A stretch of DNA of 64,000 nt from Candidatus Sulfomarinibacteraceae bacterium. GTDB taxonomy: Bacteria; Acidobacteriota; Thermoanaerobaculia; Thermoanaerobaculales; Sulfomarinibacteraceae. Shown piece by piece: positions 7,128 to 35,357 of the stretch; position 1 is the first letter of the stretch, and each line of letters starts with the position of its first letter. The stretch is taken from positions 320,001 to 384,000 of the forward strand of contig CAWCLO010000004.1 in NCBI GenBank assembly GCA_963796455.1, given 5' to 3'. A program made the translations under genes and the position numbers. Under the pieces are notes generated by a model, which was given only the letters and a program-made list of their open reading frames with translations, was not told where the DNA came from and ran no database searches.

Positions 7128-9146
7128 ATGGCTCGTTCACGAACCCGCAAACGACCGGCCAAGAAGCCGCAGCTCAGCCGAAAGACGGTGACCAATGCAC
7201 CGCCGGTAACGCCTGCAACGGCGCTGCCGCGCGCGGCGCGGTTGGCTCTGCTCGGGGTTGCCCTGCTCCTCGTGGTTTTCACCGATGACCGTCACGTCGG
7301 CGGGGTAGCGGACGGCCGGCAGATGATCCGAACTGCCATCGCCATCTCGGAAACCGGGGAGATCGGCCAGGCCCGGGATCTCGATTTCAGTATCCCGAGA
7401 AAGCAGGGTGATGCGGTCTCCCGATTCGGCATGGGTTTCAGCCTGCTCCAGGTCCCGGCCGCCTGGCTGGCGCCAAAGGTGGAGTCCATCAGTGGACCGT
7501 CCTCTTCGCAGTTCCTTTTTCTCCTCGTGCCGATCCTCGGTGTGTTGTTGACCGCTTGGGCCGCGGCGCATGCGGCGCTCTTGCTTGGTGCTCCTCCATC
7601 AGCCGCCGCTCCGGCGGTTTTGTTGGCCTCGATCGCGTCTCCTCTGGCGTCGTATGGGGCGATGGAGTTTTCTGAACCGGTGCAGGCGGCCGCCCTAGGT
7701 CTCGCCTTTGCCGCTGCGTTGGCCGCCGCCAAGCGTGCTGATCGGGACGGCGGCCGGCTTGCGGCTGCGGCCGGCGCCGCCGCGGCATTTGCGGTTCTCA
7801 GCAAATCGAGTCTGGTGGTGATCGCGCCGTGGACCCTGCTGCCGCTGTTGGCCGCGGGTGGTTTTCGCAGAGCGCGGCCGAAGATCATCGCCGCCGGTCT
7901 CGGTGCGGCACCGATCTTGGTGCTGTGGCTGGTCTTCGAGTTGATTCGATTCGGTCGTCTGTTCGGCGGCTATCCCGATGACCGTTTCACCAACAATTTC
8001 TTTGACGGTTTCTGGCGCCTGTTGATCGGCCCGAACCGGGGACTGTTGGTGTTCTACCCGGTTGCGATTCTGGCCGGGCTCTGGGCGTGGCGTGCCCTGC
8101 GAAGCGAGTGCCTGTCAAAAAAACTGGCGGCCGTTGCGGTGTGGGTACCAACTATCGGTATGGTTTTCATAGCCGCTCCTTACTGGGGCTGGCACGGCAT
8201 GGAGGGGTGGGGCCCGCGTTTGATCCTGCCGTCGGTCGCCCTGCTGGCTCCGCTGGCGGCATCGATGCTCGCGCAATGGCCCATCCGAGTGGCCTGGGCG
8301 GTCGTGGTGGTCTGTTCGGTGCTGAATGCGGCACCCCTCCTGCAGCATCCGACGCCGGTGGCGACCTACATCATGAACTGCCGCTGGCCGGAGATCCCGG
8401 CCGGGCGCGAAGTCTCTGATTACCCCTTCTACGCACGTTCCGAGGCCGCCGATGGGTCGGCGACCGTCGTGCCGTTCGAGGTCCTCGAGCGGGAGGCGTC
8501 GGCGTCTTCATTTGTCGTCTATCCCTGGTATCTCGGTGCATCAGCACAAACCGGGTCCGAGCTGAAAAAACGATTACAGGCGCCCCCGTGGTCTGATGCG
8601 CGGCCGGACATCGTGCCGGAAAGCGCTCTCCTGCGGCCCGAATCGATCAGGCGTCTGGCTCCGGAGCCCAGGCTCGGTTTTCTCGGCCGTTCGCTGTGGG
8701 CCGGCACCGGATCCGATGCCGGGGGCGTCTACGACGAAGGCCTGCGCGACCAGGTTATTCGGGCCCAACAACTCCGCGAAGATGAACGGGCGGTCGAACT
8801 CGCCGAAAAACTGCTTCGCCTGGTTCCGTCGGGGGAATCCGATGCCCTGCTCCTCGAGAGCTATCGCCTGGCGGGGTGGCGGACCCGGGCACAGGAATAT
8901 ATCCGGTCGGTGCCGCGATCGCGGCGGGATCACCCGAGGATCAACGTCGTGCTTGCCCTTTTCGAGCGTGATGCGGGCAACGAGTCCGGCGCGAAGGCAC
9001 TGCTTGGACCAGTGATCGGTGCTCTTGCAGGGACGCCGGCCTCGGACGCGCTCTATCGGCCGCTTTCCGAGTGGCCCGACGATCTGCACGCGATGACGAC
9101 GACCCCTCGCCGCGATGCGATGGTGGCCGGACCCGGGAACAGCTGA
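7128..9146 (+). CDS. Multi-pass membrane protein, probable GT-C-fold glycosyltransferase with a C-terminal TPR-like region
   Basis: About 10 hydrophobic segments, acidic first loop, 'FSEP', 'RGLLVFYP', 'WGPRLILP' motifs. Confidence 0.6.
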   Translation: MARSRTRKRPAKKPQLSRKTVTNAPPVTPATALPRAARLALLGVALLLVVFTDDRHVGGVADGRQMIRTAIAISETGEIGQARDLDFSIPRKQGDAVSRFGMGFSLLQVPAAWLAPKVESISGPSSSQFLFLLVPILGVLLTAWAAAHAALLLGAPPSAAAPAVLLASIASPLASYGAMEFSEPVQAAALGLAFAAALAAAKRADRDGGRLAAAAGAAAAFAVLSKSSLVVIAPWTLLPLLAAGGFRRARPKIIAAGLGAAPILVLWLVFELIRFGRLFGGYPDDRFTNNFFDGFWRLLIGPNRGLLVFYPVAILAGLWAWRALRSECLSKKLAAVAVWVPTIGMVFIAAPYWGWHGMEGWGPRLILPSVALLAPLAASMLAQWPIRVAWAVVVVCSVLNAAPLLQHPTPVATYIMNCRWPEIPAGREVSDYPFYARSEAADGSATVVPFEVLEREASASSFVVYPWYLGASAQTGSELKKRLQAPPWSDARPDIVPESALLRPESIRRLAPEPRLGFLGRSLWAGTGSDAGGVYDEGLRDQVIRAQQLREDERAVELAEKLLRLVPSGESDALLLESYRLAGWRTRAQEYIRSVPRSRRDHPRINVVLALFERDAGNESGAKALLGPVIGALAGTPASDALYRPLSEWPDDLHAMTTTPRRDAMVAGPGNS

Positions 9147-9580
9147 TCACTCGAGTCCAAGGCGGTGCCTCGGACAGCGTTCAGGGACAGCGACAGGGAA
9201 CGGCAAACAGCAAAAAAAACCGTAGCATCCAGCGATCAGCGGCAGCAAACAGTCGCCAGCGGCAGTGTTCAGTCATCAGCGTCAGCGATCAGCGGCCGGG
9301 ACAGTGAACGGCACTCATTTCTTCGGGACTCCGCCCTTGGGGGTGCGGCCGTCTCGGCCGCACGGTGGGCAGGCGAGACGCCGACACCACAACGGCTGTT
9401 CCTTTTATTGAACGACCCGGAGGTGATCACGCCGTCGCTGCTCCTGATTGCTGCCCCTGATCTCTGCCTCTGATCGCTGATCCTTGTCGCTGCCCCTGGA
9501 AACTGTCGCTGCCGCTGCAATTCGGGCACGGAAGCGGACGCGGACGCGGGCGCGGAGCAACCGCGATTCGGATATGCCAA
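9146..9580 (-). mobile_element. Gene-less copy (E1) of the four-helix-bundle cassette, containing a REP doublet
   Basis: Shares TCACTCGAGTCCAAG end, GAACGACCCGGAGGTG arm, TGTCGCTGCCGCTGCAATTCGG and the last gene codons plus stop with the copies at 15.3 and 25.8 kb. Confidence 0.75.
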
Positions 9581-9670
9581 CAACCAACCGCCAATCCAAG
9601 TGTTGTCGAGAGAGCAACTTTATCGACGAATTGGGGTTGACAGCAATGACAGCTGAGGCCACCTATATAT

Positions 9671-9702
9671 AAAAAAAACCGCCCCGGAGTGGGGCGGTTT
9701 TT
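9671..9702. terminator. Bidirectional intrinsic terminator
   Basis: A8-CCGCCCC-GGAGT-GGGGCGG-T5, directly downstream of the minus-strand gene ending at 9720. Confidence 0.85.
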
Positions 9703-9719
9703 GTGCTCAAATGTATTTG

Positions 9720-10490
9720 TCAGGGTGTTTCGTGGACCACATCCCACAGATAGTCCTGATGTGACCCGCAGATTTCGTTGAACTCTTTGCCGACCGCCTC
9801 GTGCTTTTTCCCGAACTCTTCGAAGATGGCGGCGCGTGCCGCCATGAGTTGTTTCATGTCGGGCGCTGTCATGGTGGCGACGCGTCGCCATTTGCCGCCC
9901 ACATTGTGTTTCAGCCAGCCCCAGGACGAGAGGGATCCGTCTTTGACAAAACTGTTGTAAATGGGAGCCATGATTTCTTCGACGATCTCGTCGGCTCGGT
10001 CTTCTTCGCTCATTTTGCAATGCATATAAACCGAGAGCGCGGCCTCGCCCCGCTCCTGGGCGATGAGCCCGGCTCCTCGCGAGGTGGGGCCAACCTGCCA
10101 AATATAATCGTCGTGGGGACCACAGATCTCGCCGAATTCTCGTCCCGCGTTGGGATTCTCCTCGGCCACCGCAGATCTGACCGCTCCCGCGGAATCGAGC
10201 AGGGCATCCATGCCCTCAGCGGAGTAATAGAGCACGCGGCGCCATTTGCCGCCGGTATGATGGGCCAGCCAGCCCCAGGACTTGATGGTGCCGTCTTCTA
10301 CCGCGGCATCGTAAATAGGCACGTAGACAGATTCGACGATCTCATCGACCCGCCACTGTCGGCTTGTGTCGCACTCGAAATAGGTGGCGTAGACGAACGT
10401 GGTCGGGGTGTCTTCCTGTGCGCCGGCGGGCGGCGCCACACAGACAATAAAGAGAGCAATCGCAACAAAAGTCAGACTCAAACGACGCAT
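9720..10490 (-). CDS. Exported protein with an internal domain duplication (possible dimeric alpha-beta barrel)
   Basis: Signal peptide; 'SWGWLxHxxGGKWRRV' and 'EICGxHxDYxW' each occur twice. Confidence 0.75.
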   Translation of the reverse strand: MRRLSLTFVAIALFIVCVAPPAGAQEDTPTTFVYATYFECDTSRQWRVDEIVESVYVPIYDAAVEDGTIKSWGWLAHHTGGKWRRVLYYSAEGMDALLDSAGAVRSAVAEENPNAGREFGEICGPHDDYIWQVGPTSRGAGLIAQERGEAALSVYMHCKMSEEDRADEIVEEIMAPIYNSFVKDGSLSSWGWLKHNVGGKWRRVATMTAPDMKQLMAARAAIFEEFGKKHEAVGKEFNEICGSHQDYLWDVVHETP

Positions 10491-10797
10491 GCACAACCTC
10501 CAGGAAGTTGGGCGACCGTTTGATGGTGCCCAACCGGCGGGCAGCGTCAACGTTCGCTGGTCAATATTTGCTCCGGGGACGACCACGAGGTGCCGGTGTC
10601 GCCCGTGCGGCACGCTTCGATACGGTTTTTTTGATCCACGAGTGTGAATCGAGGCTAGTGGGGTTGGTGATGTTTGTCAAGAGACTCAATCTCGTAAAGA
10701 GGTGACGCCAGGCGCGGGAAACCGTCGTCGAAGCTTCTCGATTCAGCTATTGCAGCTGGAGTTGACGTGCGTCAGCTCTGGGTGTATCACCGTGAGT

Positions 10798-12846
10798 ATG
10801 AGTCTGGGGCGTCTCTTCGCAGTTGTCGTTTGTGCGTGCTTGATGGCAGTGACCGCGTTTGCGGCGGATGATCGTCCAGAAATCGCCATCGCGATTCTCG
10901 AAACGACACCGGTCGTCGATGGTGAAATCGGCGATTCGGAATGGTCGCAGGCGACAGTCTCGGATGGACCGTTCATCCAGATCGAGCCGGAGGTCGGTCA
11001 ACCGTCGCCTTTTCGAACCCTTGTCCGGGTCGGGCAGAACGGGACCTCCCTCTTTGTGGCTGTGGAAATGTCCGATCCTGATCCGGACCGCATCGCGGCG
11101 GCCATCACGTCGAGGGACGGAAACCTCGACCAGGACGACGCGGTGGCCATCGCGGTCGATACCTTTCTCGACCGCCGCACGGCATACGGTTTTGCCACCA
11201 ATCTGCTGGGCACACAGCTCGACCTGCGGATCGCCGACAACGGGCGGACGGTGGACGACGAGTGGGATGCTGCCTGGCGTAGTGCGGCTCGGCGCACGGA
11301 CGATGGTTGGACCGCAGAATTCGAGATTCCATTGGACATTCTTCGTTTTCGAAGCGGTTCGGATCAATCCTGGGGATTCACCGTGATCCGTACGGTTCCC
11401 AGGCGTCTGGAAACCTCGACATGGTCCGGGCCCACCGAAGACCTCTGGCGGGTCTCGAGCTTTGGTAGCGTCACCGGTCTCGCGTTGCCGCGGGGGCAGG
11501 GAAAACGCTGGATGGCGATTCCTTACGGCCTGGCAGTGGTGGAAAAGGACGGGACCACCGATTTCGAGGTCGGCGGAGACTTCCGTTGGCGGCCGTCAAA
11601 CTCGCTCGGTGTCGATCTCACCGTCAACCCGGATTTCGCCCTGATCGAGGCGGATGTCGAGGAGATCAACCTGACCCGATTCGAACTCTTCATCCCGGAA
11701 AAACGGCCCTTTTTCCTCGAGGGCAACGAGATGTACAACCAGCGGATCAAACAGTTCTACAGTCGCCGGATCGGAGACATCCCGTGGGGCGCCAAATCCA
11801 CGGGCACATTCGGCAAGACCGATTTCTCGGTAATTGCCACGTCCGAGGACATCGAAGCGGAGGAAAGTGCGGACAGCTCGGCGGACTATGGAGTCGCGCG
11901 TTTTCAACACAGTCTACCCGGAGGGTCGACCCTTGGTCTTCTGGGCGCCAACCGGCGGCTCGATGGTGTCGATCAGGGCTCCATCGGTCTCGACACCACT
12001 CTCTTTTTCACCGAGACCCTGGGGATGACCGCCCAGTTGCTGACCGTCCACGGTCCGGCAGCCGATGGCGGATTGGCATGGTTCATACGACCCGCCTACG
12101 ACAGCACCACCACCCACTTTCACATACGATATACAAACCTCGACCAGAATATCCGCGACGATTTCAATGCTGTTGGTTTTCTCCGTGATGACGATCGCCG
12201 CGAGCTCGACACCAATTTCACCCATACCTTCTGGCTGGATCACGGTGCGGTCGAAAAGGTGAAAGCAGAAGTCAACTACAACCGATATACGAGTCAGGAA
12301 AACGTGCTTCGGAGCTGGGATCTCGATGCGGAAGTCAAGATCGTATTTCGCAACGGGTGGGAGGCAGACATCGAACACGTCGATGAGTTCCAGCTCTTCG
12401 AAAAAGAATTCCGAAACAATCTCACGGAGTTCAAGGTGGGTTGGGACGGGCGCGATGGACGATCTGTTTTTGCTTCCTACGGCACCGGTGTCAATTTTGA
12501 CAGCGACCTCACCCTTTACGGCGCCGAGGTCGAGTGGGCTCTTGGTGAAGCCTTCCGCCTCGGTTACTCACTGACGCGCCTCGTCCTCGACCCCGACCCG
12601 GAAAACGAAACAACCTGGATCCACGTCCTCGAGACCAACTACAACTTCAACCCCGATCTTTACATCAAGCTCTTTTTCCAGACCAACTCGGCCATCGACA
12701 AGGTGAACATCCAGGCGGTGTGGGTGTGGCGGTTCATTCCGCCTTTTGGTTCGCTGCAGGTTGCCTACCAGCGGGGAACCTCGGAGCTTGGCGAAGTCTC
12801 CGACCAGGGCGACACCCTTTTTACCAAGCTGTCGTGGGTTTTCTGA
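10798..12846 (+). CDS. CBM9-like domain plus DUF5916 outer-membrane protein
   Basis: 'PVVDGEIGDSEW', 'GWTAEFEIP', 'DLTVNPDF', 'PEKRPFFLEG', 'FYSRRIG'; C-terminal Phe. Confidence 0.85.
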   Translation: MSLGRLFAVVVCACLMAVTAFAADDRPEIAIAILETTPVVDGEIGDSEWSQATVSDGPFIQIEPEVGQPSPFRTLVRVGQNGTSLFVAVEMSDPDPDRIAAAITSRDGNLDQDDAVAIAVDTFLDRRTAYGFATNLLGTQLDLRIADNGRTVDDEWDAAWRSAARRTDDGWTAEFEIPLDILRFRSGSDQSWGFTVIRTVPRRLETSTWSGPTEDLWRVSSFGSVTGLALPRGQGKRWMAIPYGLAVVEKDGTTDFEVGGDFRWRPSNSLGVDLTVNPDFALIEADVEEINLTRFELFIPEKRPFFLEGNEMYNQRIKQFYSRRIGDIPWGAKSTGTFGKTDFSVIATSEDIEAEESADSSADYGVARFQHSLPGGSTLGLLGANRRLDGVDQGSIGLDTTLFFTETLGMTAQLLTVHGPAADGGLAWFIRPAYDSTTTHFHIRYTNLDQNIRDDFNAVGFLRDDDRRELDTNFTHTFWLDHGAVEKVKAEVNYNRYTSQENVLRSWDLDAEVKIVFRNGWEADIEHVDEFQLFEKEFRNNLTEFKVGWDGRDGRSVFASYGTGVNFDSDLTLYGAEVEWALGEAFRLGYSLTRLVLDPDPENETTWIHVLETNYNFNPDLYIKLFFQTNSAIDKVNIQAVWVWRFIPPFGSLQVAYQRGTSELGEVSDQGDTLFTKLSWVF

Positions 12847-12848
12847 CT

Positions 12849-14285
12849 TCAGGGCACCGTGTTCGACCAGGCGCTGGAGTCACCCGATCCAAAGCCGTCC
12901 GCAAAGACCATCCGGTTTTCGATGACGAGGGATACCGCGCGGATGCGGGTGTCGGAATCACTGCCGAGTTCGACCGCCACCTGATAGGTGGCACTCGTGT
13001 TGTCGATGACCTCGGGCGTTACCAGATCGATCCCCGGCTGGGCGGACCCGGGCGTACCGCTGGTGCTGACGGCGGCAACTTCGGAGCATGACGTTGCACC
13101 AACCGGGCAGCGCGAAAAAGAAACCCGAACATCCACGGCATCGTTGTCCCATGAAGAGAACTCGAGCCGCGAGACCGTCGTACCCGAAGCAAGTTCGACC
13201 GGGGCGATGAGAACACAGGCGAGGCCCTGGCAGTAACGATCGCCGCCGAAGGCCTCGACCGCGTCGATGTCGTTGGCGGATCGACCTTCAAATGCGAATG
13301 GATTGATCGCCAGGCGGTCAAAGCGGGGGAAAACCGAGGGGGACTCGAACTCGATTCGTGCCCCAATCAGCCGCGTCGAGTTGGTCTGGCCGAGGGTGAC
13401 CTCGGTGATGTAGGTCGCCGTCGTGTTGTTGACCGTCTCCGGAGAATTCAGATCCACGCCGATCTGGGAAGTGCCTGGAGTTCCGCTCGTGGCGAGAGAC
13501 GCGAGCGGGGCGCACGCCCCGGTGGCGATCTGGCAGCGAGAGAGACTCAACCCGACATCTGCCGAGCCCGTATCAACCGAGTCGAGTTCGATCCGGGTGA
13601 GCCGCGAACCGGAGGGGAGCTCGACTGGAGCGCTCAGTGTGCAGGTCTCGCCGCTACAGTAGCGTTGGATGCTGACGGCTGCGAGTGATGACCTGCCGGT
13701 GGCGGAACGCGCCTCGTGCGCAAAAGGGTTGAGCGCCAGGGTGTCGGTCGTGGGGCGGGATTCCGGCGCTCTGAAAAACACCCTGGCGCCGACGAGACGG
13801 GTCTGCGAGTCGTCGCCCGGAGCCACCTCGAAGAGATAGGTGTAGTCGTCGTTGTTGACCGTTTCCGGTGTCCCGAGATCAATGCCGATCTGGGTGGCGC
13901 CTGCGGCACCGCTGGTCGTAATCTCGGCGAGTGGCTCGTCACACCCCTGGGTCCCCACGGGGCAGCGATAAAAGTTTGCTTTGACGTCGTTGACGGTGCT
14001 GTCATCGACTACATCGAGCTCGATTCGGGTCACGATCGAGCCCGACGGTAGCTCGACCGGCGCTTCCAATCCGCACAGGGCCAACCCGTCGCAGTATCGC
14101 TGTACCCCCGAGACCATGAGGGCGTTCATGTCGATCGATTCGAGGCCCTCAAAGGCAAAGGGATGGATTGCCAGGACGCCGTCCACCGCAGCCAGGTTAT
14201 TGAAGTGTTTGGTGGGTCGCGGTTGCTCGGCCGATGCGGTCCCCAGCATCACCAAAGAGGCCAGTGCGAAGAATTGGAAGGCCAT
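12849..14285 (-). CDS. Secreted protein with three tandem Cys-containing repeats and a C-terminal FADGFGSG motif (start uncertain)
   Basis: Three copies of 'LAxxPFAxE...RYC...C.L.APVELxSG...R.E...RC...C...TSG...GxDLxxPE'. Confidence 0.75.
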   Translation of the reverse strand: MAFQFFALASLVMLGTASAEQPRPTKHFNNLAAVDGVLAIHPFAFEGLESIDMNALMVSGVQRYCDGLALCGLEAPVELPSGSIVTRIELDVVDDSTVNDVKANFYRCPVGTQGCDEPLAEITTSGAAGATQIGIDLGTPETVNNDDYTYLFEVAPGDDSQTRLVGARVFFRAPESRPTTDTLALNPFAHEARSATGRSSLAAVSIQRYCSGETCTLSAPVELPSGSRLTRIELDSVDTGSADVGLSLSRCQIATGACAPLASLATSGTPGTSQIGVDLNSPETVNNTTATYITEVTLGQTNSTRLIGARIEFESPSVFPRFDRLAINPFAFEGRSANDIDAVEAFGGDRYCQGLACVLIAPVELASGTTVSRLEFSSWDNDAVDVRVSFSRCPVGATSCSEVAAVSTSGTPGSAQPGIDLVTPEVIDNTSATYQVAVELGSDSDTRIRAVSLVIENRMVFADGFGSGDSSAWSNTVP

Positions 14286-14463
14286 CAACCGGGCGGGCCG
14301 ACACCTTGGTACTCCGGGACGTGGATTGATGTGCACGGCACAAGAGTAGCGCGACTCTTGTTTTCCGGCGTGACGCGGATCATCCGAGGACCAAAGAAGG
14401 GAATGCCGTCGGCGGTGAATTGTTGCTCTGAGTGTCAAATACCAACCTACGAGGAGTCGACCC

Positions 14464-15240
14464 ATGAAGAGAGCCTCGATCTTGTCTGTCGCGATTGTTT
14501 TTTCAGCGTGTTGTGGGCTCGCCGGCCTGGCGATGGCCGGGGATGAAGCTTCGGCGGAGCGTCTGGCGGGGACCGTGCTGATTACGGGCGCGAACCGTGG
14601 TCTCGGGCTGGAGTTTGCCCGCCAGTTCAAGGATCAAGGTTGGAAGGTCATCGCCACCGCGCGAAACCCAGATAAGGCCGTTGATCTGAAGGCGCTCGAC
14701 GTGGAGGTGTTGCGACTCGACGTGACGGACACGAAGGGGATCGAAGATCTGGCGCAAAAGCTCGAGGGCCGAGCCATCGATCTGTTGATCAACAACGCCG
14801 GGATTTTTCCACGGGTGGACACCCTGGCGGAGACCGATTTCGACGATGTGGCCCGGACCCTGGCCGTCAATGTCATCGGTCCGATGAAGGTGACGAGGGC
14901 GCTCCTGCCGAATCTCCGTCTGAGTGAGGCCAAACAGATCGTCAGTATCACCAGCGGTCTCGGTAGCATCGCCCTCAACACGGGCGGCCGCTTTTACGGC
15001 TACCGGGAGAGCAAGGCGGCGCTCAATATGTTCACCCGTTCCCTGGCGGCTGAGTTGGCCGACGAGGGGTTTACCTGCATCGTCATGAGCCCCGGGTGGG
15101 TACAAACCGATATGGGTGGGCCGAATGCCAACCTGACGCCCGAGCAGTCCATAACCGGGATGCGCAAGGTCATCGGCAGCCTGACGGCGGAAGACAACGG
15201 AAGCTATTGGAATTACAACGGCGAAAAGCTGCCCTGGTGA
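14464..15240 (+). CDS. SDR family oxidoreductase (C-factor/CsgA-like) with N-terminal signal-like extension
   Basis: TGANRGLG, NNAG, YRESK (YxxxK), PGWVQTDMGG. Confidence 0.9.
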   Translation: MKRASILSVAIVFSACCGLAGLAMAGDEASAERLAGTVLITGANRGLGLEFARQFKDQGWKVIATARNPDKAVDLKALDVEVLRLDVTDTKGIEDLAQKLEGRAIDLLINNAGIFPRVDTLAETDFDDVARTLAVNVIGPMKVTRALLPNLRLSEAKQIVSITSGLGSIALNTGGRFYGYRESKAALNMFTRSLAAELADEGFTCIVMSPGWVQTDMGGPNANLTPEQSITGMRKVIGSLTAEDNGSYWNYNGEKLPW

Positions 15241-15246
15241 GTCGCG

Positions 15247-16148
15247 GGATACTCGATGCTGGATTCTGGATGCTGGATCGTGCCGCGTTTCGGAGAAACC
15301 GCAGATAACGCAGATGAACGCAGATCAGGCATCCAGTATCTAGCATCAAGCATCACTCTTATCCAAAACAGTGTCTGGGACAGGGTCAGGGACAGCGACG
15401 GGGAACGGCAGACAGCGAACAGGAGCCAGCGGCAGCATTCAGTCATCAGCGACAGCGCCGGCAACTGCACTTACATTTTCGGGTTCAACAGACGCCAGGT
15501 CATGGCACGGACCTGATCGAAGGCCTTCATCGCATCATTTGCTCCGTTCGGGCTGATCGCCCCGGCGTGGGCGAGGAGCTGCAAGTGGCTGTCGACCTCT
15601 TTCGCCGAGGCGTAGGCGATTCTCCAGTGGTTGGATCGGTCTCTTCCGACTCGGCCGTGCCCTTCTGCCAGATTCGCAGGGACTGAACTCGCTGACCGGA
15701 CGACCTGATCGGCTATGGATTTCAGCGGAGCGGGAACTCTCATCACGAGTTTGATCGCGATTCCTGCTGCTTCGAGGGCTTTCGAGTGGACAACGAGGTT
15801 GGTGTTCGTGGCGGCGTTGGACATGGTCACCTCCGGGTCGTTCATGCGCATATCCACAAGCCGGTGTGGCGGCCGATGTCAAGGATGCCCTGCACCCTGC
15901 CTGTCCTTGACATCGGCCGCCCACCGGCTACCCCTTCTGTTGAACGACCCGGAGGTGGCCATTTCGTCGCATGAAATCCAGACTGCTGCCGCTGCTCTCC
16001 GTCGCTGAACACTGACCGCTGTCCCTGTTCGCTGTAGCCTGTCGCTGACGCTGGACCCTGTCGCTGCCGCTGCAATTCGGGATTGGGAACGGGATCGAAA
16101 AAGATGGAGACGTTTCTCGTCGTTCATCTGCGCGATCTGCGGTTTCTC
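15247..16148 (-). mobile_element. Gene-bearing four-helix-bundle cassette (E2)
   Basis: 28-bp inverted repeats at 15293-15320 and 16121-16148 (26/28 match), CAGCG-rich inverted arms, nested hairpin at 15824-15961; homologous along its length to 25821-26618. Confidence 0.75.
15471..15824 (-). CDS. Four-helix bundle protein (23S rRNA IVS protein / Avd-like family)
   Basis: 'DQVVRSASSVPANLAEGHGR...IAYASAKEV' family motif; GGAGG five nt before the ATG. Confidence 0.88.
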   Translation of the reverse strand: MSNAATNTNLVVHSKALEAAGIAIKLVMRVPAPLKSIADQVVRSASSVPANLAEGHGRVGRDRSNHWRIAYASAKEVDSHLQLLAHAGAISPNGANDAMKAFDQVRAMTWRLLNPKM

Positions 16149-16165
16149 AGGCGCAGGATTGTCGG

Positions 16166-17605
16166 CTAGTCAGAGATCCCCACGAAGCGTAGAAGGTGTT
16201 TCCGGAACTGTGCCGCGAGACCGGCCGGTGAGATGAGGGCTCCGGTCTCGTCGCGCAGTGCTTCGCCTTCAAGACGGCGCACCGCCATCTTTTCAGCCAG
16301 CTGATCGGCGAGTTCGGTGTGGTGTTCGAGGAGATCGTGGAGGCCGGAATCGTCGACTTCGATCACTTCGAGGAATTGGTCGGAGGCCCTGACGGTGGCT
16401 GTTCTCAGACTTCCGGTCAGGAAGGCCATCTCGCCAAAGAGATCACCTTTGGTGAGGGTGGCGAGGTCTCGCCCCTCCTGCTCGACAGCGGCCGATCCGG
16501 CGGCCACCAGGTAGAGGGCGGTGGATTCTTCTCCGGTCTGCACCACCGCTTCCCCTGGCGCATAACGATGCAGGCTCGAGGCCTCCGCCAGAGCGACGAG
16601 GGCCTCCTCGGGGATTTCTGCAAACAGTTCACAGGCCGCCAGGGCTTCTCGCCGTCGGTCCTGGGAGTCTGAGCTTTCGACCCGACGCGGTCGGTGCAAC
16701 GTGCGCTGGGGGAATGGAATCTCCATGCCGGTCCTGGCCAGTGCCGCGTGCGCACGAGTGAGAAAGGCATCGGTCAGATCTTCGCGCCGCCACGGCGTTC
16801 GCGTCCACAACCGGCACTCGTAGACCACCGCACTGTCGGCAAATTCGACGGTGAGGATTCTCGGTGCGGGAGTCGCCAGCACACCGGGAATATCGATCGC
16901 GACCTGGCGGAACACCTCTTTGGCGGCATCCGGCGGCACACCGTAGGCGACACCCAGGCGGACGGCAACGGCTGCCGGGCGTTCACCTGAGCCGAGGATG
17001 GTGACCCGAGCAGAGCCCACATCCGAATTCGGAACCAGCATGCGTTCGCCGAGGCGGGTTCGCATGAGAAGTGACCGCCATCCGGTCTGTTCGATAATGC
17101 CGACCCGGCCGTCGAATTCGACCCAGGTACCGATGGAAAGACGTTGTTCCCACGCCAGGGCGAGGCCGGCGAGCAGGTTGCCGAGAGTCTGTTGCAGAGC
17201 CAACCCGACGACCACCGTAATGACCGCCGAGGTGGCAATCAGACCTGTGATTTCAACACCTAGATTTCGCAACAGAAAAAGGCCCAGCAGGAGATAGACA
17301 GCGAGGGCTACGACTTCGCGTACCAGGCGCGGTGGGGTCACTCCCATTCGACGGATGAGAACCCAGTCGAAGATGATCATCAGACTGCCCCGCGCAACCA
17401 GAAAACCGAGCGACAGCACCAACGCCACCTCGGTCCAACGGATCAGAACTTGGTCGGCGGCGAACTGCGAGGCCAGGAGATGGGCCAGGGCTGCCGCGGC
17501 CGTCAGAAACAAAGGCAAGGTCAAAGCACGGAGCCGTTTGAGCGGTTCGGCGCGCAGCACGATGGCCACGACAACGGTGACGACGATCAGGATGGCATCC
17601 AACAT
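16166..17605 (-). CDS. Mechanosensitive channel MscS with C-terminal cNMP-binding domain
   Basis: 'VVGLALQQTLGNLLAGL', 'GWRS', 'IPFPQR'; 'FGEMAFLTG..RTATVRA'. Confidence 0.9.
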   Translation of the reverse strand: MLDAILIVVTVVVAIVLRAEPLKRLRALTLPLFLTAAAALAHLLASQFAADQVLIRWTEVALVLSLGFLVARGSLMIIFDWVLIRRMGVTPPRLVREVVALAVYLLLGLFLLRNLGVEITGLIATSAVITVVVGLALQQTLGNLLAGLALAWEQRLSIGTWVEFDGRVGIIEQTGWRSLLMRTRLGERMLVPNSDVGSARVTILGSGERPAAVAVRLGVAYGVPPDAAKEVFRQVAIDIPGVLATPAPRILTVEFADSAVVYECRLWTRTPWRREDLTDAFLTRAHAALARTGMEIPFPQRTLHRPRRVESSDSQDRRREALAACELFAEIPEEALVALAEASSLHRYAPGEAVVQTGEESTALYLVAAGSAAVEQEGRDLATLTKGDLFGEMAFLTGSLRTATVRASDQFLEVIEVDDSGLHDLLEHHTELADQLAEKMAVRRLEGEALRDETGALISPAGLAAQFRKHLLRFVGISD

Positions 17606-17713
17606 GGGGCCATAGTACCCAAACACCGATGCGGAATCACTCGTTTGGCCTTATCGCTTTCGGCCGGAAATGAGTTTGACGGCCTCGCCATTCACATTTC
17701 AGGAGGCCGGGAG

Positions 17714-17851
17714 ATGGGCATATTCAAGGTGCGGTCGGATTCGGACGAGAACCGCCTTGACACCAGCTTTGGTGGGATTTTCGAGGAGCACGAGTCGGTG
17801 AGCTACGCGGGATCGATCGCCGAAGCGGACGCGATCCTCGACAACCGGTGA
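17714..17851 (+). CDS. Possible small protein (45 aa) or gene remnant
   Basis: AGGAGG at 17701-17706 ahead of ATG; fills the gap between two genes; no recognisable motif. Confidence 0.3.
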   Translation: MGIFKVRSDSDENRLDTSFGGIFEEHESVSYAGSIAEADAILDNR

Positions 17852-17857
17852 GCCCGC

Positions 17858-18526
17858 CTATTTTCTGTAGTTCGAGTTCTCGGTGTCGATTCGCAGCTCG
17901 AGACCCTTCCACGTGGTCACGGTGGATGACCGGGCGACATAGTTCGGGCCGTAGTCCATGCTGCCAAAAGTGACGTCGAGGGTGAGGGGCTGGCCTTCGT
18001 TGCTGGTGGCGACCGACATGCTCAGGGGCCGCTGGCTGGAGCGGACCAGGGTGACCTGGACGGTGTCACCCGCGTTGACCACATCCTTCGCGTTGAGAAG
18101 GATCTCTTCATCTTTTGCGGTTGCGGTCGCCGACGATACGGCCTTCTCCGCAAACAGCGGTCCCAGGTAGACATCGAGTTGCTCCCTGGCTTTTCTGATG
18201 AACTCGATCGCAGCTTCACGGTCTTTTTTTGAAAGCTTCTTTCCGTCGGGAAACCGCACCTTCTCCTTTGTGACTGTGCTCCCGGTCTGGAGTTTTTCGA
18301 GAAAGCCGTTGACGTTGTATCGTGACGAATAGGTGTCGGTCTGTTTCGGGACCCCGTCAACCGAATAGACGATCTTCGAATCCCATGCGTAGAGTCGAAT
18401 CTCTTCCTGGTTCTTTTTCATCTGGGCTGACATAGCTCGAAGATCGAAACCGTCCTGTGCGGGGACGTCGGTAGCAGAGATCATCAGCCCAATCGCGAAC
18501 GCGAACAACATTTTCAATCGATTCAC
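17858..18526 (-). CDS. Hypothetical exported protein
   Basis: GTG start after a purine-rich RBS, signal peptide, about 220 aa open frame. Confidence 0.7.
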   Translation of the reverse strand: MNRLKMLFAFAIGLMISATDVPAQDGFDLRAMSAQMKKNQEEIRLYAWDSKIVYSVDGVPKQTDTYSSRYNVNGFLEKLQTGSTVTKEKVRFPDGKKLSKKDREAAIEFIRKAREQLDVYLGPLFAEKAVSSATATAKDEEILLNAKDVVNAGDTVQVTLVRSSQRPLSMSVATSNEGQPLTLDVTFGSMDYGPNYVARSSTVTTWKGLELRIDTENSNYRK

Positions 18527-18679
18527 CTTCTCACTCCCTTCGCATCCAAGGCCCCTAAGCAGGTGTTGCAGGTTACCATGGGGGGCCGGGGATTCCGGAT
18601 GTTCGGGTTCCCGCTGTACAGAACATACCGTCACGTGAATTTGCTGACTCAACAGCACCAGAATAGCGGTTGAGGGTTT

Positions 18680-19050
18680 TTGGCATATCCGGTTCGCGGT
18701 TGTCCGTGCCCGTGCCCGTGCCCGCGTCCGCGTCCGAATTGCAGCGGCAGCGACAGTGTCCAGCGTCAGCGACAGGCAACAGCGAACAGGGACAGCGGCA
18801 GTGACCAGCGACAGGGAACAGCGGTCGGCGATCAGTAGTCAGCGATCGGCGGCAGCGATCAGGTGCAGCGACGGCGTGGCTCTTCCTCCGACGAGCCTCC
18901 CAAGATTAAGGTGTCACCCATGTCCCTAGAACAAAGTGTTACCCATGTCTCCGGGTCGTACCCTTCTGTTAGCTGACCTTGTCCGCTGTCGCCGTTCCCC
19001 GTCCCCGTCCCCGGTCGCTGTCTGAGACCCTGTCCTGGACGAGAGTGATG
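18680..19050 (+). mobile_element. Gene-less cassette copy (E3) whose core resembles an IS481-family end
   Basis: TTGGCATATCC...CCGAATTGCAGCGGCAGCGACAGTGTCCAGCG left part and GTCGCTGTCTGAGACCCTGTCCTGGACGAGAGTGATG right end match other copies; direct repeat GTGT(C/T)ACCCATGTC at 18911 and 18936. Confidence 0.7.
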
Positions 19051-19120
19051 TTCCATCGAAGACTGCGGTTCCGATCGACGCGAGAGGCGGGGTAGAATGC
19101 GTGTCCGACTGGAGGACGAC

Positions 19121-19747
19121 ATGCGATTGCCCCGCGAATTGGATCCGGTGGAGATCCGGGTCCTCGGCTGCCTGCTCGAAAAGGAGCAGACGACCCCCGA
19201 CGCCTACCCGCTTTCGGTCAACGCCCTGATGGCCGCCTGCAATCAGAAAAGCAACCGTGATCCGGTCATGCAGCTTTCGGAGGCAGATGTCGAGGCGACG
19301 CTGGACCGGCTGCATGGTGAAGTCATGGTGTGGCCGGTGGAAGGTGCCAGGATCCGCAAGTGGCGCCACAGCCTCGATCGAAAGTGGGAACTCGACGGCC
19401 GTGTCAAAGCCGTCATCACGGTTCTTCTTCTCCGCGGCGCCCAGACCGCCGGCGAGATCCGGACACGAACGGCGCGCATGCATGATTTTGCTTCCACCTC
19501 TGAGGTCGAGGGCGCGTTGGCTGAACTGGCGGGCGGGGAAGAACCTTTGACGGTCCACCTCGAACGACGGCCGGGTCAGAGGGACGCCAGGTGGACCCAC
19601 CTCTTAAGTGGCGCTCCGACCGAGGCGACTGCGCCCTTCCTACCATCGGCTCCCGAAGATTCAGCCGCCCCTCTCTCGGAACGCCTCGCCGAACTCGAGG
19701 CACGGGTCACCCGTCTCGAGGAAGCCATGGCCCGACGAGAAGATTAA
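19121..19747 (+). CDS. YceH family protein (DUF480)
   Basis: 'RVLGCLLEKEQTTPDAYPLSVNALMAACNQKSNRDPV', 'LLLRGAQTAGEIR'. Confidence 0.92.
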   Translation: MRLPRELDPVEIRVLGCLLEKEQTTPDAYPLSVNALMAACNQKSNRDPVMQLSEADVEATLDRLHGEVMVWPVEGARIRKWRHSLDRKWELDGRVKAVITVLLLRGAQTAGEIRTRTARMHDFASTSEVEGALAELAGGEEPLTVHLERRPGQRDARWTHLLSGAPTEATAPFLPSAPEDSAAPLSERLAELEARVTRLEEAMARRED

Positions 19748-20268
19748 TCCGAAGGCGAGGGTGGCGGGAAAAACCCGAGCTGGCTCAGAAAAGCTACGTT
19801 GTCCCAGCTGACCCAGGTTTCGGCGACTTTCCCGTTCTCCAACCGCTGGATGATGATGTTGACGAGAGTGAATTCCTTGCCGGTGGCGGGCAAATCGCCC
19901 ATGGGTCCGGTCTGAACTCCCTTCATCGTCGACACATAGGCGACCATGTCGCCCTGCGCAATCATCTGGGTCAGGGTGTCTTCGTAAACCGGGACGGCGA
20001 TCAAGAAGTCCTCGATGAAGGCGAGAAATTCCGCGGTCCCTTCGAGCTCCTGGAACTCGGGCGGCATGGCCTGGCAATGACGGACGTAGTTCGGAGCCAG
20101 TGCCGTTTTGAAGGCCTCGATGTCGCCGCGGGCCAGGGCCGCGTGGGTACCCCGCACCGCCGCGATATTCGATTCTTCGATCGATTGTGTGGCAGGTTGT
20201 ACACCGCATCCGGCGAGTGCCGCCGACATCCAAAGAACGAAGCAGCCGCAGCAGATCAGACGATTCAT
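19744..20268 (-). CDS. SnoaL-like ester cyclase family lipoprotein
   Basis: LAGC lipobox; 'IAQGDMVA', 'PATGKEF', 'ENGKVAETW'. Confidence 0.8.
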   Translation of the reverse strand: MNRLICCGCFVLWMSAALAGCGVQPATQSIEESNIAAVRGTHAALARGDIEAFKTALAPNYVRHCQAMPPEFQELEGTAEFLAFIEDFLIAVPVYEDTLTQMIAQGDMVAYVSTMKGVQTGPMGDLPATGKEFTLVNIIIQRLENGKVAETWVSWDNVAFLSQLGFFPPPSPSD

Positions 20269-20429
20269 GAAACACCTCCGGGCCTTTTCGATTTCGTTCT
20301 TGTCGTTGATTGCTCCTTTGGATCATATCCTGCCCTTTCGGCCGTGTCGGAATCGAAAATGGTAGATTTTGTTGCATCTGGTGTTATGAATGCCCGGCGT
20401 TCAAAAAATCAACCAACGGAGATAATTTC

Positions 20430-21230
20430 ATGAAAACGTTTCGGACTGTGTCTGCCATCATTTTGACCATCGTCCTGGCTGCCGGAACGGTCGCGGCCCA
20501 GGAGGAGTCCAAGAAGAACACAGGTCGCCGCAAGGGAGCGAAGGGCGGGGCCATCGTGGGTCTGACCCTCGGTGCCCTGACCGGTGACGCCAAGATCGCC
20601 GTTGCCGGTGCCGCGGCAGGCGCCGTGGCAGGGGGGGTAAGCGGAGACTTTTATGATTACGATCAGAGTCGACAGGATGATCGCACCCAGATGCTTGCCG
20701 ATGGCATCGCCGGGTCGAAGGCGGGCAGCCCCCAACCTGGCGAAACCGTAGGAGAAACGGGCAAGCGCCATTTCCAGGAGCTTTCGGGCGAGTGGAAGGT
20801 CGACATGTGGTACATGGGCAATGAGGGCAAGGGCCAGACGGCGTCGGGCACGGCCCGAGGTCTCCAGGCGGGCGACAACGCCATTCGGATCGTCTACCAG
20901 GATATCGCGGTCGAAGGCTACGAAGAAAAAGTCGGTGGATACACGCTTCTGAGCTACGAACCGGGTCAGGGTTTTTCTATCGAGAACATTTTTTCGGTCT
21001 CGGACGATGTGGTCAAAGGAGTCGGCGAATACCTGGCGGATCGTAACCTCTACAACTTTTACATGGTCGACCCGACAGCCGGTGAGATGCTCGCCGGCGG
21101 TCTGATCCGTTCAAATGTGCGCACAGAGGTCCGGATCGTCGGGTCTACCATGTGGATTGCCGAGGCCTTTACCATGATCGACGGCGAAGAGACAAAGGTC
21201 CAGACATACCGGTTTACTCGACCGCAGTAG
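20430..21230 (+). CDS. Exported hypothetical protein with glycine-zipper segment
   Basis: Signal peptide, 'KGAKGGAIVGLTLGALTG...GAAAGAVAGG'. Confidence 0.7.
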   Translation: MKTFRTVSAIILTIVLAAGTVAAQEESKKNTGRRKGAKGGAIVGLTLGALTGDAKIAVAGAAAGAVAGGVSGDFYDYDQSRQDDRTQMLADGIAGSKAGSPQPGETVGETGKRHFQELSGEWKVDMWYMGNEGKGQTASGTARGLQAGDNAIRIVYQDIAVEGYEEKVGGYTLLSYEPGQGFSIENIFSVSDDVVKGVGEYLADRNLYNFYMVDPTAGEMLAGGLIRSNVRTEVRIVGSTMWIAEAFTMIDGEETKVQTYRFTRPQ

Positions 21231-21256
21231 CGCTTTCGGTTGATCGGCAGGCGGTT

Positions 21257-22375
21257 TCAGCCTCGCAATCTCGCGATTGCTTCCCGCTCCTTTTCCCGAG
21301 AAATCCATCCGCGCGGATTCGCACGGCGCTCGTCGGTTTGCGCGCGCCACCACTCAAGGGTGCCCTCAACCGACTCGGCGAGCGAGCGGTAGTCGAGCCC
21401 GGTGCGCATGGAGGCCTCGTTCGAGAAGACGACCGGGTCGCCACCCTCGTCTCCCCGGGCATTCCAGTCGAGCATTGGTGGAGAGATCTCGAGTTCGTCC
21501 AGCAGGGCCTGTTCGGGCCACCAGAATCGAACCGGGGCGTTGGTGGTGGCCCGGATGCCCCACATCAATCCGGCGCGGGAGACCTCGGACGATGGTCCGG
21601 CCGCGTTGTAGATGCCGACGGCGTCGCGCTCGACGAGATCGATCACCCAGGGGCAGAGATCGCGAGCATCTACCCACTGGATGACGTCGTCGGGTCGGTT
21701 CGACGTCAGCACGTCGCCGCCTCGATGGATTCGGTCGGCCCAATAGGTGAAACGATCGGTACGATCGCCGGGGCCGACGATATAGCTCGGGCGAACGATG
21801 GTCGCCTTGTCGCCGAGTTCGGACTGGATGATCCGGTCGCATTCCGCCTTGAGCGGACCGTAACTCTCTCCGGTGACCTCTTCGAGGGTCGGATCGTTCA
21901 AGGGTGCGAGCGGTCCGTCCTCGGGGAAATGCGGGCCTTTACTGAAGTCGTAGACCGCCACCGTCGAAATGTAGAGATATCGACCGACCCGTCCCTTGAG
22001 CAATTCCACTGAATCGCGGACGTGACGCGGCACGTAGCCTGAGTTGTCGATCACCGCGTCCCAGGTGCGGTCACCCATGAGTGGGTCGAGCCCATCATCG
22101 ATCTTCGAATCGCGGTTGCCGACAAGTTCTTCGACGGCGCTACCAAAGAGACCGGACTTCCGCCCACGATTGAAGACCGTCACCTTGTGTCCGCGTTCGA
22201 GGGCGTAACGCACCTGGTGCGGACCGATAAAACCGGTGCCACCGAGAAACAACAGATCGAGCGAAATCCCGGCCCTCGGGACTGCGGCGGTTGCGCTCCG
22301 GAGACCGGCGGCGCCGAGGCTGACGGCACCCGCGGTGCCGGCGGCAATCTTCAAAAAATCGCGACGAGTCGTCAT
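21257..22375 (-). CDS. NAD-dependent epimerase/dehydratase family protein with Tat signal
   Basis: TRRDFLK twin-arginine motif; LGGTGFIG; YGPLK. Confidence 0.88.
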   Translation of the reverse strand: MTTRRDFLKIAAGTAGAVSLGAAGLRSATAAVPRAGISLDLLFLGGTGFIGPHQVRYALERGHKVTVFNRGRKSGLFGSAVEELVGNRDSKIDDGLDPLMGDRTWDAVIDNSGYVPRHVRDSVELLKGRVGRYLYISTVAVYDFSKGPHFPEDGPLAPLNDPTLEEVTGESYGPLKAECDRIIQSELGDKATIVRPSYIVGPGDRTDRFTYWADRIHRGGDVLTSNRPDDVIQWVDARDLCPWVIDLVERDAVGIYNAAGPSSEVSRAGLMWGIRATTNAPVRFWWPEQALLDELEISPPMLDWNARGDEGGDPVVFSNEASMRTGLDYRSLAESVEGTLEWWRAQTDERRANPRGWISREKEREAIARLRG

Positions 22376-22584
22376 GAAATCCTCCAGCTTCAGATTGTCG
22401 AGAAGGGGAGATCTTAGCAAATTCACATGTTCGTTTGATGCGGACTGATTCTTTCGATCGGGCTCTCGATGTCAAGAAACCCGGTGCCGGATGTGATCTT
22501 TCGCACAGGTCGTGGCTGAATATCGAGAAACCGGGGTTACGCCTGATGGGATTGCTGCGTCCTTGCGCGTGGAGGGCGTGAAAA

Positions 22585-23259: not shown

Positions 23260-23366
23260 ATTCCTGTTCGGGCACCAACGCTTCATTTCCGGGCGCCTGA
23301 AATGCCGGAGATAGGCCTGGGTTAGAATGCCTCACGATGCTGTCGGCCGGCTGGAGGTATTCGACC

Positions 23367-25079: not shown

Positions 25080-25100
25080 GACAGGACAAACGGAGAAAAA

Positions 25101-25805: not shown

Positions 25806-25820
25806 TTTCCCGTCCGTCTC

Positions 25821-35026: not shown

Positions 35027-35357
35027 GCCCAAGATGGAGTCGCGGACAGTGATCAGGGACAGCGACAGGGACCGGCGGACAGCGTCAGCCAACAGGAGTC
35101 AGCGGCGGTTTGCAGCGACAGCGAACGGAATTCTACTTTTTTGGGACCCCGGCTTTTGTGGTGCGGCCGTCTCGGCCGCACGGCGTGCAGGCGAGACGCC
35201 TGCACCACAATGGCTGTTCCTTCTGTTGAACGACCCGGAGGTGGCCACGTCGCCGACTGGACTCCTGACCGCTGCCGCTGCAATTCGGGCACGGACGCGG
35301 ACGCGGACACGGGCGCGGGACAACGGCGAACCGGGTCTATCTGTGCAATCTGCGGGC
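35027..35357 (-). mobile_element. Gene-less cassette copy (E5) containing a REP doublet
   Basis: TTGAACGACCCGGAGGTGGCCA at about 35226-35247, GCTGCCGCTGCAATTCGGGCACGG, REP doublet at 35156-35210; same internal layout as E1. Confidence 0.75.

Follow-up and report, generated by a model that had tools for sequence, protein, structure and literature searches.

Here, we analyzed a block at positions 15247-16148 of a 64,000-nt stretch of DNA (hereafter, the window) from the genome of a Candidatus Sulfomarinibacteraceae bacterium (G000; 5.02 Mb in 10 contigs, 90.5% complete). The block carries a gene for a 117-amino-acid (aa) four-helix-bundle protein of family PF05635, together with a hairpin and a CAGCG-rich and a CGCTG-rich arm. 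We consider it probable that it contains a one-ended copy (15354-16080, unit 1) of a family of about 150 non-autonomous inverted-repeat cassettes, likely moved in trans by a transposase of the IS4 family. Because the family has 18-bp terminal inverted repeats and 9-bp duplications, and shares its ends with an IS4 partner, it is a mobile insertion cassette (MIC) or a MITE (miniature inverted-repeat transposable element) of a known insertion sequence (IS) family, and not the new mobile system proposed in an earlier reading made from the letters of the window only (the sequence-only reading). The broader picture drawn there, of a dispersed element with complete and deleted forms that has no enzyme of its own and needs one in trans, is borne out. 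In a genome-wide census, 61 both-ended copies stand beside 91 others.

Terminal repeats, target duplications and a probable partner transposase

Two flank motifs put forward in the sequence-only reading, GAACGACCCGGAGGTG and GCTGCCGCTGCAATTCGG, occur 166 and 76 times exactly in the genome (227 and 131 times at up to one mismatch), in both cases far above chance. A tblastn search with the window protein returned 103 pieces, 59 of which span residue 1 to at least residue 114 in one piece, at 86-95% identity. The five copies noted in 64 kb are real, and as a count they understate a family of about 150. The anatomy of the element, which is about 850 bp long, was taken from an alignment of 59 gene-bearing copies, each extended by 700 nt in both directions. 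In the gene's sense, its left part consists of the inverted repeat CACTGCTGTCCAAAACAG, a subterminal stretch of ~110 nt, a short hexamer tract and the anchor CCGAATTGCAGCGGCAGCGACAG; the CAGCG-rich arm, a 130-nt hairpin, the gene, the CGCTG-rich arm and the right inverted repeat (CACTCTTGTCCAAGACAG read inwards) follow. The 117-aa gene is the sole conserved open reading frame (ORF) in these 340-890-bp units, and no transposase lies inside them.

Complete copies are bounded by the 18-bp inverted repeats CACTGCTGTCCAAAACAG / CACTCTTGTCCAAGACAG, with 9-bp direct duplications outside. Genome-wide, the inverted-repeat pattern has 81 exact matches and 223 at up to two mismatches, and there are 61 adjacent, inward-facing pairs less than 1 kb apart, which fall into two size classes, one gene-less (341-580 bp) and one gene-bearing (about 780-890 bp). 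A census anchored on the 23-nt motif CCGAATTGCAGCGGCAGCGACAG, with ends scored at up to three mismatches, yielded 152 copies, of which 61 have both ends recognizable. Sorted by core, 48 of the 152 contain the intact 117-codon gene, 47 a "twin-hairpin" core, 47 some other core and 10 the hairpin without an intact gene. In the twin-hairpin core, GTGCGGCCG-NNN-CGGCCGCAC and then a second small hairpin replace the hairpin and gene (window 9300-9400 and 35140-35215). This motif is present at about 70 loci genome-wide (140 exact matches, the pattern being self-complementary so that each locus is counted on both strands). A search of Rfam gave no family on the cassettes and none on the twin-hairpin core.

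The duplications are specific to one register. At least eight of nine flank bases are identical in 35 of the 61 pairs at k = 9, and in 0 of 61 at k = 8, 10, 11 or 12; TCTTTGCGT, found on both sides of the copy at C4:224392, and ACGCTGGAT, at C7:250697, are examples. In 42 of the 61 pairs, AT stands on both sides and the flanks keep the period of GGATGCT-type heptamer arrays. The 16 pairs outside arrays, which have a mean of 6.69 of nine bases identical compared to 2.88 with shuffled partners (maximum of 4.31 in 500 shuffles), argue against the 9-bp repeats being an artefact of the array period. Inverted repeats combined with register-specific 9-bp duplications are the signature of a DDE cut-and-paste transposase. 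The non-array duplications have decayed (37 mismatches in 144 positions), and the insertions are therefore old. As a separate observation, the IS4-type elements insert preferentially into GGATGCT-type arrays just 3′ of stop codons (window 15247-15353 and 26581-26617, and the flanks of most copies), and ISL3-type elements of sister genomes use AACGTTC-type arrays likewise.

A partner with the same ends is found in the same genus. Locus L018 of genome G017 contains a 1,411-bp IS (positions 1162-2572) with one end reading CAGTCTTGTCCAAAACCG and the other identical to the left repeat of the cassette. Its product, P0001 (402 aa), comprises DUF4372 and DDE_Tnp_1 (E = 1e-25), scores 251 bits against the IS4 family transposase model NF033592 (cut-off of 115) and contains the Y-2-R-3-E-6-K motif; loci L017 and L009 contain further ISs with cassette-type ends. 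The portion of PMC2266710 that treats the IS4 family gives CA ends, 8-10-bp direct repeats and, for subgroup IS4Sa, a length of 1.15-1.75 kb as its traits, with which the L018 element agrees, and the 9-bp duplication of the cassette falls in the 8-10-bp range of Table 1 there. Among 401 genomes sampled from the class, 28 have the cassette repeat at up to one mismatch, often at a distance of 34-81 nt from the end of a contig, the pattern to be expected where an IS in many copies interrupts assembly. In G034, G032 and G008, the same ends also enclose MITEs of 310-390 bp whose interiors are unrelated. To judge from the ends, the duplications and this partner, P0001, or a close relative of it that G000 now lacks or that escaped assembly, would have cut and pasted the cassettes; the copies in the window would be immobile now, their left end being gone.

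Three other assignments were considered and set aside. The lone DDE_Tnp_1 gene of G000 (C7:291107) does not have similar ends. A 498-aa DDE_Tnp_1 IS of 1.73 kb (L006 and L007 in G006, L008 in G004) has other ends, TAGCCCGCATATCTCAC, and a look-alike of the cassette repeat inside it is due to chance. An assignment to Tc1/IS630, suggested by a likeness of the end to the Tc1 repeat, was dropped given zero DDE_3 matches in G000, a duplication of 9 bp and not of TA, and the IS4 partner.

The cassettes thus share much with MICs and IS-derived MITEs: IS4-family ends, a passenger without a transposase, a duplication of the length typical of the family, many copies and gene-less miniatures as well. They differ in that (i) the passenger is an intervening-sequence-type hairpin with an S23p gene and not a metabolic or resistance gene, (ii) there are ~150 copies, (iii) purifying selection acts on the passenger in dozens of them, and (iv) the passenger is also found on ISL3-type ends in sister genomes. 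MIC231 is reportedly a mobile insertion cassette on IS231/IS4-family ends. A literature search, with the supplements of prokaryotic MITE surveys outside its reach, gave no description of PF05635 genes in MITEs or MICs.

The protein and the predicted RNA structure of the cargo

The proteins encoded at 15471-15824 (minus strand) and 26102-26455 (plus strand) match PF05635 (E = 1.7e-15 and 4.1e-15; 57.6 and 56.4 bits, cut-off of 33.8) and TIGR02436 (58.2 and 58.3 bits, cut-off of 24). Their identity of 87.9% over 116 residues, plus a differing last residue, amounts to the 15 differences counted before, so that both the family assignment and the count agree with the sequence-only reading. An AlphaFold model of the unit 2 protein (26102-26452) has a predicted local distance difference test (pLDDT) score of 93.8 and helices at residues 3-27, 35-56, 60-86 and 92-113. 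It superposes on 2GSC (TM score of 0.82, root mean square deviation [rmsd] of 1.5) and 2RLD (TM scores of 0.82-0.84), and a profile built from 24 relatives recovered the same two structures (2GSC, which is XCC0516, at E = 5.5e-22 and 2RLD at E = 3.3e-21). Scans of the PADLOC and PHROGs libraries gave no match. Four more distant PF05635 paralogs in G000 (C4:1278094-1278408, C1:983149-983445, C9:2726-3031 and C10:733004-733315) are 19-30% identical to the cassette protein, have higher Pfam scores (75-110 bits) and lie outside cassettes and ribosomal RNA (rRNA).

With Avd of diversity-generating retroelements (DGRs), the protein shares the four-helix-bundle fold (4DWL_D, TM score of 0.77 and rmsd of 1.6; 8UB7, TM score of 0.76), and a passage of PMC10053308 states the relation between PF05635 and Avd. 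The two differ in that the structural matches have 7-9% identity, the 24-relative profile gave no Avd match at E up to 1, and a pair of template and variable repeats was not seen. A DGR was rejected because no reverse transcriptase (RT) was found (zero RVT_1 matches in G000).

The gene is under purifying selection. Of the 59 single-piece full-length copies, 58 have an intact 117-codon frame with no insertions or deletions. Over all pairs, the proportions of synonymous and nonsynonymous differences (pS and pN) are 0.28 and 0.055, respectively, for a dN/dS of 0.16, with values of 0.10 in the core and 0.45 in loop residues 86-100. Differences are four to five times more frequent at third than at second codon positions, and in 49 nearest-neighbour pairs, which differ at a median of 24 of 351 bases, dN/dS is 0.156. 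As the insertions are old, yet the genes intact, the frames have been maintained since insertion. There are also signs of gene conversion among copies: all four gametes occur in 593 of 780 informative site pairs and r2 drops from 0.17 (<10 nt) to 0.02 (>60 nt), which together indicate that copies exchange short tracts. The target of selection may be the entire family and not each copy.

The cassette RNA is predicted to be rich in hairpins. Unit 2 (25840-26600) folds at −358 kcal/mol (z = −6.7), its left arm pairing with its right arm in a predicted stem of roughly 100 imperfect base pairs that encloses the hairpin and gene. Hairpins are 130-145 nt long, and their basal stem holds GGAGG three to five bases 5′ of the ATG; in many copies the palindrome extends over the ATG, so that ribosome-binding site (RBS) and start codon are buried. 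In an alignment of 18 hairpins from eight genomes (A1), from which three 186-nt variants of G006 and four near-duplicates of G014/G008 were left out, 13 of 43 pairs have compensatory changes on both sides, and the outer 16 pairs (CACCTCCGGGTCGTTC / GAACGACCCGGAGGTG) do not vary among the 18 sequences. Across the 59-copy alignment, the majority frequency is 0.93-0.98 in the hairpin blocks, at least as high as in the coding blocks, and 0.68-0.78 in the arms. In some copies of G006 (L020, L022 and L024), the conserved pair of 16-mers encloses another structure, of 186 nt, instead of the usual hairpin. The 17-mer TGAACGACCCGGAGGTG has one to three matches each in 76 of 401 genomes of the phylum (including G040), and these are mostly ordinary strong ribosome-binding sites.

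The likeness of the cargo to intervening sequences (IVSs) of 23S rRNA and to Avd, proposed from the sequence, is upheld by the predicted stem, the ORF family and the fold. ORF-bearing IVSs (Coxiella burnetii, Leptospira, Xanthomonas and Brucella; S23p) have in common with the cassette the protein family and fold (2GSC), complementary termini in a predicted long stem round the ORF, a poorly accessible RBS and a length of 0.4-0.8 kb. The sections of PMC4990558 on ORF-bearing IVSs describe a 28-bp stem, excision by RNase III and an old idea that they are transposon remnants, and cite a homopentameric ring for XCC0516. Cassettes, in contrast, are multi-copy and intergenic in all copies seen, have IS-type repeats and duplications outside the stem, and hold an intact and selected gene, whereas the Coxiella ORF is reported to be decaying. 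An rRNA IVS as such was rejected, as the 23S gene of G000 (C10:140644-143654) has 3,011 nt compared to 2,925 in the model and no ORF-sized insert.

The cargo is built like an ORF-bearing rRNA IVS, with a predicted arm stem, an RBS-hiding hairpin and a gene for a basic four-helix bundle of S23p/Avd fold. In the mechanism that we propose, transcription would read through from a neighbouring gene and RNase III would cut the arm stem, as it does in IVSs; the predicted cut would free the cassette RNA and lessen the damage to the host transcript. The hairpin would hold translation of the small protein low. The protein is maintained by selection, and copies exchange sequence by gene conversion. As a tentative guess, the protein may bind the structured nucleic acid of the cassette itself.

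These results describe a free-standing, testable relative of gene-bearing rRNA IVSs, and they bear on two old questions for which a tractable system has been missing, namely the origin of ORF-bearing rRNA IVSs and the role of the widespread S23p/Avd-like protein outside DGRs. Here the gene-in-a-stem design is met about 150 times away from rRNA, together with transposon ends, duplications, a partner transposase in the genus and a selected protein, which supplies sequence evidence for the idea from the 1990s that IVSs are transposon relics. The ends of two unrelated IS families and the preference for heptamer arrays, in turn, tie the module to the unexplained heptamer repeats found between the genes of bacteria.

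One cargo on two types of ends, and competing accounts

Amplification of the gene is very uneven across the genus: the window protein has 54 matches in G006, 45 in G004, 18 in G008, 13 in G014 and 3 in G034. Each of 31 genomes has between 0 and 70 PF05635 matches; among sister species, IS4-type ends range from 0 to 161. G000 and G006 have the cargo on IS4-type ends. In G014 and G008, GGYTCATCCGGAAWT ends enclose the same arms, hairpin and gene, with AACGTTC arrays and an 8-bp duplication outside, and by coordinates such ends surround the cargo in G016 and G017 too; cargo protein identity across these genomes is 64-87%. The GGYTCATCCGGAAWT ends, of which at least 10 genomes of the genus have many and G000, G006 and G034 almost none, are assigned as ISL3-type because they bound a 1,303-bp IS (L073, in G017) whose 407-aa frame matches PF01610 (DDE_Tnp_ISL3) at E = 2.6e-69. 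A first search for this partner, made with single-ended G014 matches, met MITE ends only, and the partner was later found through PF01610. Since the cargo lies between both types of ends, two unrelated IS families have each given rise to non-autonomous derivatives that contain the module. In addition, G000 cassettes have ATCCCGAATTGCAG at the inner edge of their left part; it resembles the inner part of the ISL3-type end and may be a relic of an ISL3-type ancestor or a chance likeness.

Several observations weigh against a cassette family defined and moved by IS4-type ends. First, because sister genomes hold the same cargo between ISL3-type ends, IS4 ends are not a defining part of the module. 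Second, many copies are incomplete: in the census, 46 copies have a right end only, 22 a left end only and 23 neither. The left end is missing in 69 of 152 (46 of these retain the right end), and the break is always at or just outside the short hexamer tract (CCCGAT / GTCCGC). Loss by recombination with outside hexamer arrays was rejected, as 16 of 17 hexamer arrays adjoin the anchor and belong to the element. Third, tblastn at E up to 0.01 found no homologue of P0001 in the 90.5% complete G000 assembly, and no inverted repeat lies at any of its contig ends. Fourth, neither an empty site nor an insertion polymorphism was seen at the two sites compared, which are non-collinear in sister species and so offer no comparable junction. 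Fifth, the count of intact genes is biased, since the 59 copies were picked as single tblastn pieces and at least six further loci are split in two. Sixth, the arms of one copy pair no more strongly with each other than with foreign arms (−115 compared to −116 kcal/mol in 39 of the 59 copies, the other 20 being skipped for lack of an anchor or right-end match); there is no copy-specific covariation, and the arms are therefore generic. Finally, a simple consensus scan of unit 2 found no sigma-70-like promoter and no intrinsic-terminator-like site; any expression of the gene would therefore be by read-through.

Some of these observations would suit a different account, in which the cargo module (arms, hairpin and gene) is the true unit of spread and selection, repeatedly picked up by derivatives of different IS families and maybe moved or copied by recombination or gene conversion between heptamer arrays, the protein aiding its own persistence. 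The presence of one module on IS4-type ends (G000 and G006) and on ISL3-type ends (G014 and G008 and, by coordinates, G016 and G017) speaks for it, as do the 91 of 152 G000 copies without one or both IS4 ends, the decay of linkage within tens of bases (r2 from 0.17 to 0.02; 593 of 780 four-gamete pairs) and the likeness of ATCCCGAATTGCAG to the inner ISL3-type end. However, the 9-bp duplications in G000 abut the IS4-type ends and not the arms, which makes transposition by IS4 ends the route that is documented there; copies with the same ends and no gene equal the gene-bearing ones in number (47 twin-hairpin compared to 48 with the gene), so that the gene is unneeded for spread; no mechanism for end-independent movement was seen; and chance may account for the 14-nt likeness to the ISL3 end. 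On balance, we hold this account to be unlikely, though it is the strongest of the alternatives. At about the same low level of confidence, one may speculate further that the module is a selfish unit and a free-living ancestor of rRNA IVSs, which recruits any DDE ends at hand (IS4 here, ISL3 in sister genomes), neutralizes its insertion through an RNase III-cleavable stem and encodes a nucleic-acid-binding pentamer acting on heptamer-array hairpins; if so, the action of the protein would be what keeps dozens of copies under selection.

Less probable still is a host-domesticated intergenic module, the arm hairpins of which would serve as terminators or mRNA-end stabilizers between convergent genes, with the proteins forming an ordinary multi-copy host family and mobility being a thing of the past. 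Convergent gene ends do flank four of the five window copies (as read from the ORF list and sequences). This placement, however, is a consequence of the preference for heptamer arrays as insertion target. The copies are old (pS of 0.28, decayed duplications) with the gene maintained nonetheless, their sequence is homogenized and the assembly has no partner transposase, all of which a resident host module would explain. Against this, copy number is very uneven among sister species (0 to 70 for PF05635, 0 to 161 for IS4-type ends), the consensus scan met no terminator-like site, and about 58 near-identical genes would be an odd answer to a host need.

HUH Y1 transposases are not known to leave a target duplication. 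The RNA or single-stranded DNA intermediate favored by the sequence-only reading, with RT, a transposase of the type associated with repetitive extragenic palindromes (REP; RAYT) or an IS200-type TnpA acting in trans and the Avd-like protein as RNA-binding partner, is accordingly very improbable and largely refuted: the Avd fold (4DWL, TM score of 0.77 and rmsd of 1.6), the hairpin-rich cassette and six Y1_Tnp matches in the genome are what it has in its favor, and terminal inverted repeats with register-specific 9-bp duplications, an IS4 partner sharing the ends and zero RVT_1 matches stand against it. The Y1_Tnp matches include C4:1144044-1144370, C4:1147021-1147347 and C8:150867-151193, and three of the six lie in open frames of 336-346 aa. 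Abundant intergenic palindromic DNA and Y1 genes in the genome are thus shared with the REP/RAYT and TIRYT palindromes; an element of REP/RAYT or IS200/IS605 type was rejected in view of the DDE-type inverted repeats and 9-bp duplications.

The copies in the window and their surroundings

A cassette family probably moved by an IS4-type enzyme is represented in the window by two gene-bearing and three gene-less copies (Table 1). The majority sequence of the 59-copy alignment matches unit 1 (15352-16093) at 90% and unit 2 (25851-26605) at 89%, in line with the homologous units that had been described around both genes. It also matches parts of 9145-9649, 18613-18839 and 35045-35306, which marks these as gene-less relatives. 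The three gene-less copies of the sequence-only reading are therefore real and can be located. They had been said to keep both flanks, which is true of the arms and not of the left inverted repeat: at up to three mismatches, the window has three matches to the inverted repeat, all of the right type, and no copy with a recognizable left one. The "TGGA....AGTGA end" noted in that reading is a real end as well, and is the right terminal inverted repeat of the IS4-type element.

Table 1. Features of the cassette copies in the window and of the adjoining repeats
Feature	Position	Strand	Remarks
Unit 1, one-ended cassette copy	15354-16080	gene on −	Inside block 15247-16148
GGATGCT-type heptamer array, outside the element	15255-15279		Right after the stop of the upstream gene; read from the sequence
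Half of the separate CGCAGAT-type dispersed repeat, outside the cassette	15292-15329	+	Inverted half at 16114-16150
Unit 1, right terminal inverted repeat (CACTCTTATCCAAAACAG read inwards)	15354-15371	+	Pattern match, one mismatch
Unit 1, right arm, CGCTG-rich in the gene's sense, immediately past the stop codon	15372-15470	−	59-copy alignment
Unit 1, intact gene for the 117-aa four-helix bundle (PF05635/TIGR02436)	15471-15824	−	Profile matches
Unit 1, 130-nt hairpin	15828-15957	−	Basal stem CACCTCCGGGTCGTTC / GAACGACCCGGAGGTG contains the Shine-Dalgarno sequence, 3 nt from the ATG
Unit 1, left arm, CAGCG-rich in the gene's sense	15958-16080	−	Ends in anchor CCGAATTGCAGCGGCAGCGACAG at 16058-16080
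Unit 2, without left end	25858-26580	+	Anchor 25858-25880, left arm to 25967
Unit 2, inner parts	Hairpin 25968-26098; gene 26102-26455; right arm 26456-26562; right inverted repeat 26563-26580	+	
Gene-less copy, twin-hairpin core	9145-9649	−	Right end adjoins the stop codon of the upstream gene; left end degenerate
Gene-less copy, third core type	18613-19047	+	Right inverted repeat 19030-19047
Gene-less copy, twin-hairpin core, both ends eroded	35027-35357	−	

Unit 1 stops after its anchor and is without the left inverted repeat and the ~110-nt subterminal region of complete copies, the majority sequence aligning to it from its position 107 onward only. In the anchor census, it belongs to a class of nine copies with the gene and the right end and no left end, so that both ends are a property of the family (61 of 152) and not of this copy. 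Its right inverted repeat is the one that also delimits the complete copies and the autonomous IS in L018. The block 15247-16148 does contain unit 1, as had been claimed, and it also includes GGATGCT-type arrays: the array listed in Table 1 and 15330-15353 together are of the type preferred by the family as insertion target.

The CGCAGA-type repeat, in contrast to what had been proposed, is no part of the unit. It is a separate dispersed family, GGAGAAACCGCAGATCACGCAGATGAACGCAGAT, whose 11-mer has 281 matches genome-wide at up to one mismatch, and in the majority of the 60 rows inspected no cassette is attached. Some of its copies form palindromes of ~80 nt (e.g., at C1:722940 and C1:751579), and two inverted halves of it flank unit 1.

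In a deleted sub-family, the same 262 bases are missing between the hairpin and codon 56 (window 26006-26269 and equivalent positions of other copies), GGCCGAT standing at either break point, and about ten tblastn pieces that begin at residue 57-59 represent this class. Contigs from four sediment metagenome runs, compared with 8000-27500, show that the organism or a near relative is present there at about 2-4x. No contig from these runs bridged an element or showed an empty site in that interval, and the sole recurrent joint, 26006 to 26269 (262 bases skipped), was found in all four runs and fits the deleted sub-family. A look-up of RNA runs covering 13000-18600 gave none.

The genes that flank unit 1 (14400-17000) and those that flank the copy at C4:405317 (L064, G000:C4:403800-407200) are each conserved in relatives and never adjacent there. 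Cassettes thus sit at breaks of gene order in both of the two sites compared, in a genus with ~70-80% DNA identity in those flanking genes. The orientation of upstream neighbour genes, taken from raw ORFs, was 28 same and 31 opposite, which is too noisy to use. At the far end of the window, away from the cassettes, an Acido-Lenti-1 RNA (RF01687) lies at 62589-62634 on the minus strand, with 37.9 bits compared to a gathering score of 37.

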